A stretch of DNA of 4,082 nt, taken from the IMG/VR virus record IMGVR_UViG_2740892273_000009; one strand, 5' to 3'. Both the position numbers and the translations under genes were made by a program. The notes under the pieces are model-generated. The model saw only the letters and a list, made by a program, of their open reading frames with translations. It made no database searches and was not told the DNA's origin. Shown one piece after another: positions 3,587 through 3,982 of this stretch (within the stretch, counting starts at the first letter, position 1; each line of letters starts with the position of its first letter). The DNA comes from a virus. Lineage: Duplodnaviria > Heunggongvirae > Uroviricota > Caudoviricetes.

Positions 3587-3982
3587 TTAATCATCATTAA
3601 TATCTTTCATATTCAATTTGCAATTTTCGTAGGTCACTCCCGACTCGCCATTAACATTAACTCCAGCTCTGATATTCCCGTTTTCTTTTACATCTACAAA
3701 AAACTGGCCTCTTGGCATCTTGAACGCAAATGTAAAACCAACAGTATCTGAATCAAAATCATCATCTTTATATATTGGGATCAAAAATGTCATCGTCGCT
3801 GGTGATGCATTGTTTGCAAAATCAAATACACCTATACTTTTGCCGAATTCATAAGAAGCTTTTCTCAATATAATCGCACCGCTGGCAGAAGGGGATGGGC
3901 ACGATATCCTCAGTTGTCTGAATCCATCTGTATCCAAGTCAACGTCATTATCTGCAGATGTTTTAACGGGTAATGACTCCAA
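3587..3982 (-). CDS. Hypothetical protein, AT-rich orphan ORF, probably 5'-truncated by IS1. Native sequence is 3587-3968; the TTG start at 3980-3982 proposed by the ORF track lies inside IS1
   Basis: Open frame with TAA stop followed by its own terminator. Base composition is roughly 30-35% GC by eye, against about 50-58% for the tail genes. The frame is open up to the IS1 junction at 3968/3969, with IS1-internal stops just upstream in frame. No in-frame ATG with a convincing RBS inside the unique part. No family recognised. Confidence 0.4.
   Translation of the reverse strand: MESLPVKTSADNDVDLDTDGFRQLRISCPSPSASGAIILRKASYEFGKSIGVFDFANNASPATMTFLIPIYKDDDFDSDTVGFTFAFKMPRGQFFVDVKENGNIRAGVNVNGESGVTYENCKLNMKDINDD

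Follow-up and report, generated by a model that had tools for sequence, protein, structure and literature searches.

An IS1-truncated gene fragment beside the tail gene N of a decayed prophage: the probable remnant of a moron for an exported, possibly envelope-protective protein

The IMG/VR record IMGVR_UViG_2740892273_000009 (Caudoviricetes), in its full length of 4,082 nucleotides called the window here, holds a group of phage tail genes enclosed by two ends of the insertion sequence IS1. Our subject is an AT-rich block adjacent to one of these ends, at 3587–3968 on the minus strand, which carries the 3′ part of a small open reading frame (ORF). We take it to be the IS1-truncated remnant of a moron, an accessory gene of an SfV-like prophage, the intact protein of which would be exported and most likely protect the cell envelope; we would give this reading a probability of roughly 0.75. 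All ORFs enclosed by the IS1 ends are encoded on the minus strand. The features are, from the block outwards:

3587..3968, minus strand: native 3′ part of the moron ORF (codons V35–D160 and the TAA stop of a 160-codon gene)
3552..3581, minus strand: terminator of the moron (Rho-independent), AAGCCGCCAG-AAA-TTGGCGGTTT and then a T-run
3960..3968: a single copy of the 9-bp target duplication of IS1, CGTTAAAAC as read on the minus strand
3969..3982, minus strand: IS1-derived first five codons, TTG-GAG-TCA-TTA-CC., of a 131-amino-acid fusion ORF
3969..4082, minus strand: IS1 end (3′ end of insB and terminal inverted repeat), with insB transcribed towards the ORF fragment
2149..3540, minus strand: N, a DNA circularisation tail gene of the Mu gp43 type (PF07157, DNA_circ_N, E 3e-36)
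1070..2152, minus strand: gp44/P baseplate hub gene
559..1092, minus strand: gp45/V gene
115..543, minus strand: truncated Baseplate_J gene
1..114, plus strand: second IS1 end, an inverted copy, which cuts the Baseplate_J gene

The block differs from its surroundings in composition, with a G+C content of 0.374 versus 0.547 for the tail genes at 114–3540; at third codon positions, G+C is 0.307 in the AT-rich ORF versus 0.547 in N. The ORF as it stands (3982..3587, minus strand) specifies 131 amino acids and ends in TAA at 3589–3587. Its first five codons, including the TTG start, are from IS1, and the native part consists of 126 full codons, V35–D160. An earlier reading of this DNA, made from the letters of the window and hereafter called the sequence-only reading, had put the native C-terminal part at about 127 residues; only the C-terminal part is indeed native, and the count is 126 codons. 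The native fragment is acidic (isoelectric point of 4.5) and contains two cysteines. The terminator starts within 5–8 nt of the TAA of the frame, with a G+C-rich stem of 9–10 pairs (3581–3559) followed by seven T, and its folding energy of −14 kcal/mol (z = −3.4) was attained by none of 200 shuffled sequences. A scan of the region returned three terminator-like sites where 0.4 were expected. The ribosome-binding site of N (GGAGA at 3549–3545) lies immediately past this terminator. Thus, what the sequence-only reading had described from composition and layout is borne out: a block more AT-rich than the tail genes, an open frame running to a TAA and a hairpin with T-run, and a location between IS1 (a perfect 114-nt repeat on one side) and N (DNA_circ_N on the other), where N is the Mu gp43-type DNA circularisation/tail gene and not the N gene of lambda. 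A match to the Rfam small RNA RcsR1 over 3555–3626 (minus strand), covering the terminator hairpin, scored 24 bits (E 0.075), the gathering score being 60, and was taken as a chance hit.

The intact gene is extant elsewhere. The block matches 11 of 5426 complete Escherichia coli genomes with 97–100% identity, in which it falls under a “hypothetical protein” of 160 amino acids, WP_000594909, and variants thereof; positions 3587–3968 are identical (100%) to positions 12001–12428 of the locus of strain FDAARGOS_944 (L001). In the two genomes inspected, the 160-amino-acid gene is located between the tail tape-measure gene and N, so that the full-length homologue sought in the sequence-only reading could be recovered together with its context. 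Another 36 genomes carry the same N-P-V tail module, with a match that ends at window position 3544, just short of the block, and in two of these 36 block-free genomes that were examined, the tape-measure gene immediately precedes N. The gap between the tape-measure stop and the start codon of N measures 13 nt in UTME-13, versus about 590 bp where the element is present. The intact element is a clean insertion of ~590 bp with low G+C at the tape-measure/N junction; in it, a GGAG ribosome-binding site precedes an ORF of 160 codons that begins with GTG, and an intrinsic terminator of its own follows. The element that hosts it is an SfV-like prophage with an integrase, CI/Cro-type regulators, antiterminator Q, a holin and an endolysin, as well as a P27-family terminase, an HK97-type head and a Mu-type contractile tail. 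The intact 160-amino-acid protein occurs on at least 1000 contigs.

Two of the loci with the intact gene show further peculiarities. In L001, a frameshifted ipaHe gene (for an effector of the type III secretion system) and a gene for an S-adenosylmethionine-dependent methyltransferase lie just past the tail-fibre genes (1513–3154), and ISEc60 is present twice in the prophage, in the genes for the sheath and the portal; the record of FDAARGOS_944, filed under “E. coli”, looks Shigella-like. In Shigella flexneri SFBU1023 (L009, 6480–6680), both the moron ORF and the terminator are preserved intact, and N is cut ~30 nt after its start by another IS1 copy, the end of which is 96% identical. In S. 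flexneri, the accessory gene may outlive the prophage.

The way in which the window copy was truncated can be followed in a sister contig (L016). In the window, positions 1–114 and 3969–4082 constitute a perfect inverted repeat of 114 nt, comprising the codons for the C-terminal 32 residues of InsB and then the terminal repeat. Complete IS1 copies in L016 have ends that match these with 100% identity, and there the ORF of the element is identified as DDE_Tnp_IS1 (PF03400, E 6e-78). There, a complete IS1 splits the moron ORF and the same 9 bp, CGTTAAAAC, occur on both flanks: the upstream piece of the gene ends with ...AGTAACGTTAAAAC and the downstream piece starts with CGTTAAAACATCTGCAG... A target duplication of 9 bp is typical of IS1. 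The far side of IS1 in L016 retains the tape-measure gene, the ribosome-binding site, the GTG start and the first 36 codons. The downstream IS1/ORF junction of the window is identical to that of L016, and therefore the missing 5′ part was displaced by a simple IS1 insertion, in agreement with the sequence-only reading, which had the 5′ end cut or displaced by IS1. In the window, IS1 inserted after codon 36, and the main part of the gene is thereby cut off from the ribosome-binding site, the start codon and the signal peptide; the 5′ part is probably located just beyond IS1 in the source genome too, as it is in L016. The exact 131-amino-acid fusion protein is on record from Shigella sonnei (CST24788.1), on 16 contigs that are all of about 5 kb or less. 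Together with the inverted IS1 repeat at both ends of the window, this suggests a short-read contig, probably of S. sonnei, which broke off at IS1 copies, the real flanks of the window lying beyond. An exact search for the IS1/ORF junction in a genome contig collection gave no match, likely because this collection holds one genome per species.

The window copy lacks residues 1–34, with the signal peptide and half of the N-terminal helix, as well as a start codon and ribosome-binding site of its own. The surrounding prophage is degraded too, a second IS1 being present in its Baseplate_J gene. For these reasons, the copy is almost certainly a non-functional pseudogene, a dead remnant. It could be argued that the fused ORF is still expressed, by read-through from insB or by re-initiation at the TTG, and that it has retained or gained a function. 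Indeed, insB runs towards the fragment, the TTG sits 1 nt past the insB stop codon, no stop interrupts the frame and the same fusion ORF is met with on 16 contigs. However, the signal peptide has been lost along with the first 15 residues of the mature protein and, with them, half of the helix, the TTG has no ribosome-binding site ahead of it, the recurrence among contigs is explained by the clonality of S. sonnei, and the remainder of the prophage is decaying. We consider a functional fusion protein very improbable; trace translation may occur, but its product would be incomplete and, without an export signal, cytoplasmic. Taken alone, the window copy carries little weight, being one more IS1-inactivated prophage gene of the kind common in Shigella genomes. 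A variant of 100 amino acids from a Logan contig (P0007) starts at residue ~101 (KDDDFDSD...) behind an unrelated N-terminus of 41 residues, which suggests that the gene has been disrupted independently at a second site.

The intact protein matches PHROG 5586 (function unknown) from end to end (E 9.7e-89; residues 1–160 versus profile positions 1–161). The sequence-only reading had regarded the fragment as an orphan, which can no longer be upheld: it belongs to a small catalogued family, PHROG 5586/WP_000594909 (named “hypothetical protein” or “Phage protein”), and differs from its other members by the absence of residues 1–34. In an exhaustive HMMER search among 1.8 billion representatives, 18 proteins were detected at E ≤ 1e-3. 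Three of the hits (P0017, P0019 and P0020), large repeat proteins rich in Cys, Ser and Thr in which ~40 profile columns are matched up to 12 times, were dismissed as spurious. The credible full-length members are 148–176 amino acids long, mostly with an N-terminus resembling a signal peptide. We found no publication on this gene, either by accession or as a moron of SfV.

In IMG/VR, 43 loci carry the gene, with alleles that group at 93–99%, 48–49%, 39–44% and 36–37% identity, and wherever the contig reaches far enough, the gene is located between the tape-measure gene and N. Five allele groups occupy this same slot; their G+C content (0.34–0.39) is lower than that of the flanks (0.48–0.57), and every allele has a terminator hairpin at the same position but with a different sequence. 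An allele of 49% identity is present in the same slot in phage vB_EcoM-720R4. The sole annotated phage record with a tblastn match labels the gene hypothetical. The moron ORF is less conserved between alleles (36–50%) than the flanking tube, P and N genes (52–82%). Ratios of nonsynonymous to synonymous substitution rates within alleles are mostly 0.2–0.8, which, with few substitutions, says only that the gene does not look neutral.

The most distant homologues (24–28% identity) are found outside tail modules, on contigs that resemble phage-plasmids. Their neighbours are genes for ParA/CbiA, a CI-like repressor, IncFII RepA, MazEF or pairs of Gp49 and a helix-turn-helix protein (HigBA-like), and each of these homologues has a terminator. 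A gene so mobile between unlike genomic contexts is better understood as accessory than as part of the tail. In two of these loci, L006 (~690–715) and L007 (~2870–2895), the ~45 nt ahead of the start codon contain a common AT-rich near-palindrome, TTATTTAAATAAATATTTAAT, which could serve as an operator or promoter and is missing from the tail-slot alleles.

The breadth of the family also bears on the most sceptical interpretation, that the frame is a chance ORF in an AT-rich spacer and no gene at all. Such an ORF would be expected neither to belong to a Pfam family nor to have a detectable promoter, and neither has been found here. Against it stand full-length homologues down to 24% identity with a conserved length, signal peptide, cysteines and motifs, the existence of a PHROG for the family and a confidently predicted fold; the interpretation is already refuted and we assign it a negligible chance. 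The sequence-only reading had itself named two outcomes that would have spoken against a genuine accessory gene. A frame lacking conservation in related genomes is not what we see, given that it is conserved to 24% identity with its length, signal peptide and both Cys kept, nor is the frame a fragment of a housekeeping gene (no Pfam or NCBIfam match).

The intact protein begins with a signal peptide of the Sec type, MIKPFLMTVAILTSCCAQA, followed by K. In the members with a complete N-terminus, the putative cleavage sites read AQA|K, SFA|K, VFA|K, VSA|K, ALA|K or AMA|K (AxA-like). The mature protein is acidic and of about 15.5 kDa. Family motifs are CPxPSASG, GQFF(V/I) and AGVNxNG, and of two family cysteines, C150 is invariant and C57 nearly so. 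With an alignment of 12 diverse sequences, AlphaFold2 produced a model of pLDDT (predicted local distance difference test) 84.9 and pTM (predicted template modelling score) 0.77; the model from six close sequences (pLDDT 44) was unusable. Residues 1–20, within the signal peptide, are of low confidence; a helix (24–41) and eight β-strands follow. The confidently predicted fold is one helix packed on an eight-stranded up-and-down antiparallel β-barrel, which agrees with the acidic, β-rich protein with two Cys foreseen in the sequence-only reading. C57 is situated just after strand 1 (residues 52–56), C150 within strand 8 (146–152).

The structural matches of the model, with their scores, are:

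two uncharacterised MoaF-like proteins: 8.5
Cap15: 7.4
Tp0751, a lipocalin-fold protein: 7.3
de novo barrels: 7.0–7.3
avidins: 6–6.7
PliC: 6.6 and 6.4
PhiA: 6.3
BtaiB, an immunity protein of the type VI secretion system (T6SS): 6.1
MliC: 5.7

As far as the model goes, the fold class is clear and comes without a specific structural relative. One could envisage a small-ligand-binding barrel of the calycin or avidin kind, which sequesters or carries a hydrophobic or cofactor-type molecule in the periplasm. All structural matches are, however, weak and generic, with identities of 2–12% and no Foldseek match at E ≤ 1e-3; no known ligand-binding motif is present and the genomic context gives no pointer to metabolism. 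We deem a ligand carrier quite unlikely.

The function that we propose for the intact protein is drawn from its localisation, its fold class and its genomic context. It would be exported by the Sec pathway to the periplasm, become disulphide-bonded there and bind a protein or ligand to the benefit of the lysogen or carrier cell. The terminator would stop transcripts made in the lysogen, and Q-modified late transcription would read through it into N. We infer a defence or host-interaction role, of the sort that the sequence-only reading associated with prophage morons in general. Protection of the envelope in a manner resembling superinfection exclusion, directed at incoming phages or at muralytic and other envelope-attacking proteins, appears as the single likeliest function, though with the odds still against it. 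Other phages encode proteins that carry an export signal and have the periplasm or outer membrane as their site of action, e.g., Sp of T4, Llp of T5, Cor of phi80 and N15, and Lom and Bor of lambda, and several of them are encoded among tail genes. Cor and Lom have been described as prophage envelope proteins (PMC3594210). The moron product has the export signal in common with such exclusion proteins; no homology to annotated PHROG, Pfam or PADLOC models was detected for it.

A specific sub-case of envelope protection, or a rival to it, is that the intact protein inhibits peptidoglycan hydrolases of the lysozyme type in the periplasm, in the manner of MliC/PliC or Neisseria ACP, and so guards the lysogen from host lysozyme, with a role in virulence, or from the muramidases of phage tails and T6SS (the window copy being dead all the same). 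MliC/PliC and ACP are exported eight-stranded barrels with a disulphide between β1 and β8 (PMC5507604). The moron protein likewise carries an export signal, is of ~15 kDa and is predicted to form an eight-stranded antiparallel β-barrel, with one conserved Cys after the first strand and another in the last, and it features a conserved S-A-S-G motif; moreover, ACP inhibits lysozyme without the family motifs (PMC5507604). The motifs in question are SxSGAxY in loop 4 and YxxxTKG in strand 6 (PMC5507604). In the moron protein, SASG (61–64) falls into the connection of strands 1 and 2 instead of loop 4, it is not followed by a conserved A or Y, and YxxxTKG is absent; none of 12 members matches the hidden Markov model of Pfam MliC (PF09864), even at E ≤ 10. 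It also differs by its additional N-terminal helix, and its fold resembles that of MliC/PliC no better than that of unrelated barrels. We regard a lysozyme inhibitor as rather unlikely and retain the resemblance as a possible functional analogy, not as membership of the MliC/PliC family.

The status of the gene as a moron can be assessed on the definition of Juhala and Hendrix, which comprises extra DNA compared with close relatives, a deviant composition, an own promoter and terminator, and expression from the repressed prophage (PMC3594210). The tape-measure/N element is extra DNA versus close relatives, deviates in G+C and has its own terminator. Hence, the claim of a horizontally acquired moron in the sequence-only reading is sustained by presence/absence, composition and terminator, while its own promoter was not found. 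This is the chief of several results that count against our interpretation. A simple consensus scan of the intact locus yielded no consensus sigma-70 promoter, and the best promoter matches upstream of eight alleles were no better than those in shuffled sequences; in two allele groups, the ORF begins ~20 nt past the tape-measure stop. The moron may, then, be transcribed only with the late tail operon and not in the lysogen. On the side of function, the ORF and its homologues have no match in Pfam or NCBIfam, or by sequence in PDB, Foldseek finds nothing at E ≤ 1e-3 in PDB or BFVD, and for two alleles, no family in the defence models of PADLOC-DB v2 is hit at E ≤ 1. The C57–C150 disulphide is deduced from conservation and from the strand positions in the model. 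Finally, allele A, with L-T-S-C, and its Yersinia relative have a possible lipobox (L-T-S-C or L-I-S-C) that other alleles lack, and from its sequence, allele A could be either soluble in the periplasm or lipid-anchored. In the window itself, the region upstream of the moron is replaced by IS1.

The promoter scans leave room for a late gene, co-transcribed with the tail operon and not expressed in the lysogen, whose exported product serves the lytic cycle; it might shield the cell from superinfection or from lysis from without, or stop the loss of progeny on debris like T5 Llp. The absence of a detected promoter of its own in any allele and the ~20-nt distance to the tape-measure stop in two groups would fit such a gene, as would the conservation of the slot across SfV-like lineages in which N is only 52–68% identical to that of the window; the antiterminator Q, encoded by the intact relative prophage, would take late transcription through the terminator. 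Nevertheless, closely related phages do wholly without the moron, and the distant homologues reside among plasmid maintenance, repressor and toxin–antitoxin genes, which are typically expressed in the carried state. In addition, a strong terminator after each allele is expected of a unit transcribed without antitermination, and a simple consensus scan may miss a weak or activated promoter. A purely lytic role has, in our estimation, only a modest chance of being right, and we maintain that the gene is a moron whose likeliest role is protection of the envelope.

A precedent for a moron with exclusion activity is gp15 of HK97 (Juhala et al. 2000; Cumby et al. 2012; reviewed in PMC3594210). Like HK97 gene 15, the gene at the tape-measure/N junction is a small accessory gene in the tail operon beside the tape-measure gene, with deviant G+C and its own terminator, is missing from close relatives and has a product that goes (here, by prediction) to the cell envelope. 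HK97 gp15, however, is a small protein of the inner membrane, related to YebO, whose exclusion activity is proven and whose promoter has been defined; the moron protein, a predicted secreted β-barrel of ~15 kDa for which no promoter was found, has no relationship with it in sequence or fold.

In sum, the element is of a known kind, a tail-operon moron, and represents a family that is catalogued but uncharacterised. The intact family offers a tractable object, exported, small and evolving faster than the neighbouring tail genes; its occurrence in both SfV-like prophages and phage-plasmid-like contigs, as well as its features, fit a role in the envelope. Assigning its function would cover about 800 database sequences, and a new fold could join the prophage exclusion or anti-lysozyme factors. 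As a tentative extension, on which we would not stake much, PHROG 5586 and its phage-plasmid relatives could form an unrecognised class of periplasmic β-barrel proteins by which prophages defend the envelope of the lysogen, either blocking genome delivery by contractile-tailed superinfecting phages or inhibiting muralytic enzymes without MliC/PliC motifs; such genes would have been captured repeatedly at the tape-measure/N junction and in lysogeny-expressed plasmid regions, and would be kept intact in S. flexneri while the prophage decays.

Two further observations concern the neighbouring tail genes of the window. At 523/524, 558 bp are deleted in comparison with L016 (10256–10813) and L001; the deletion removes gp46 and roughly the first 45 codons of Baseplate_J and leaves an ORF (543..34) that starts in the remnant of the gp45/gp46 junction. 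The P ORF specifies 360 amino acids in the window and in L016 and overlaps the gp45 start by 23 nt, whereas its E. coli relatives are annotated with 351 amino acids and end at the gp45 start. The tblastn alignment of P to these relatives extends no further than residue 347, and indels of net 5 nt distinguish the window from L001, which points to an altered C-terminus or a frameshift in the P gene of the window.
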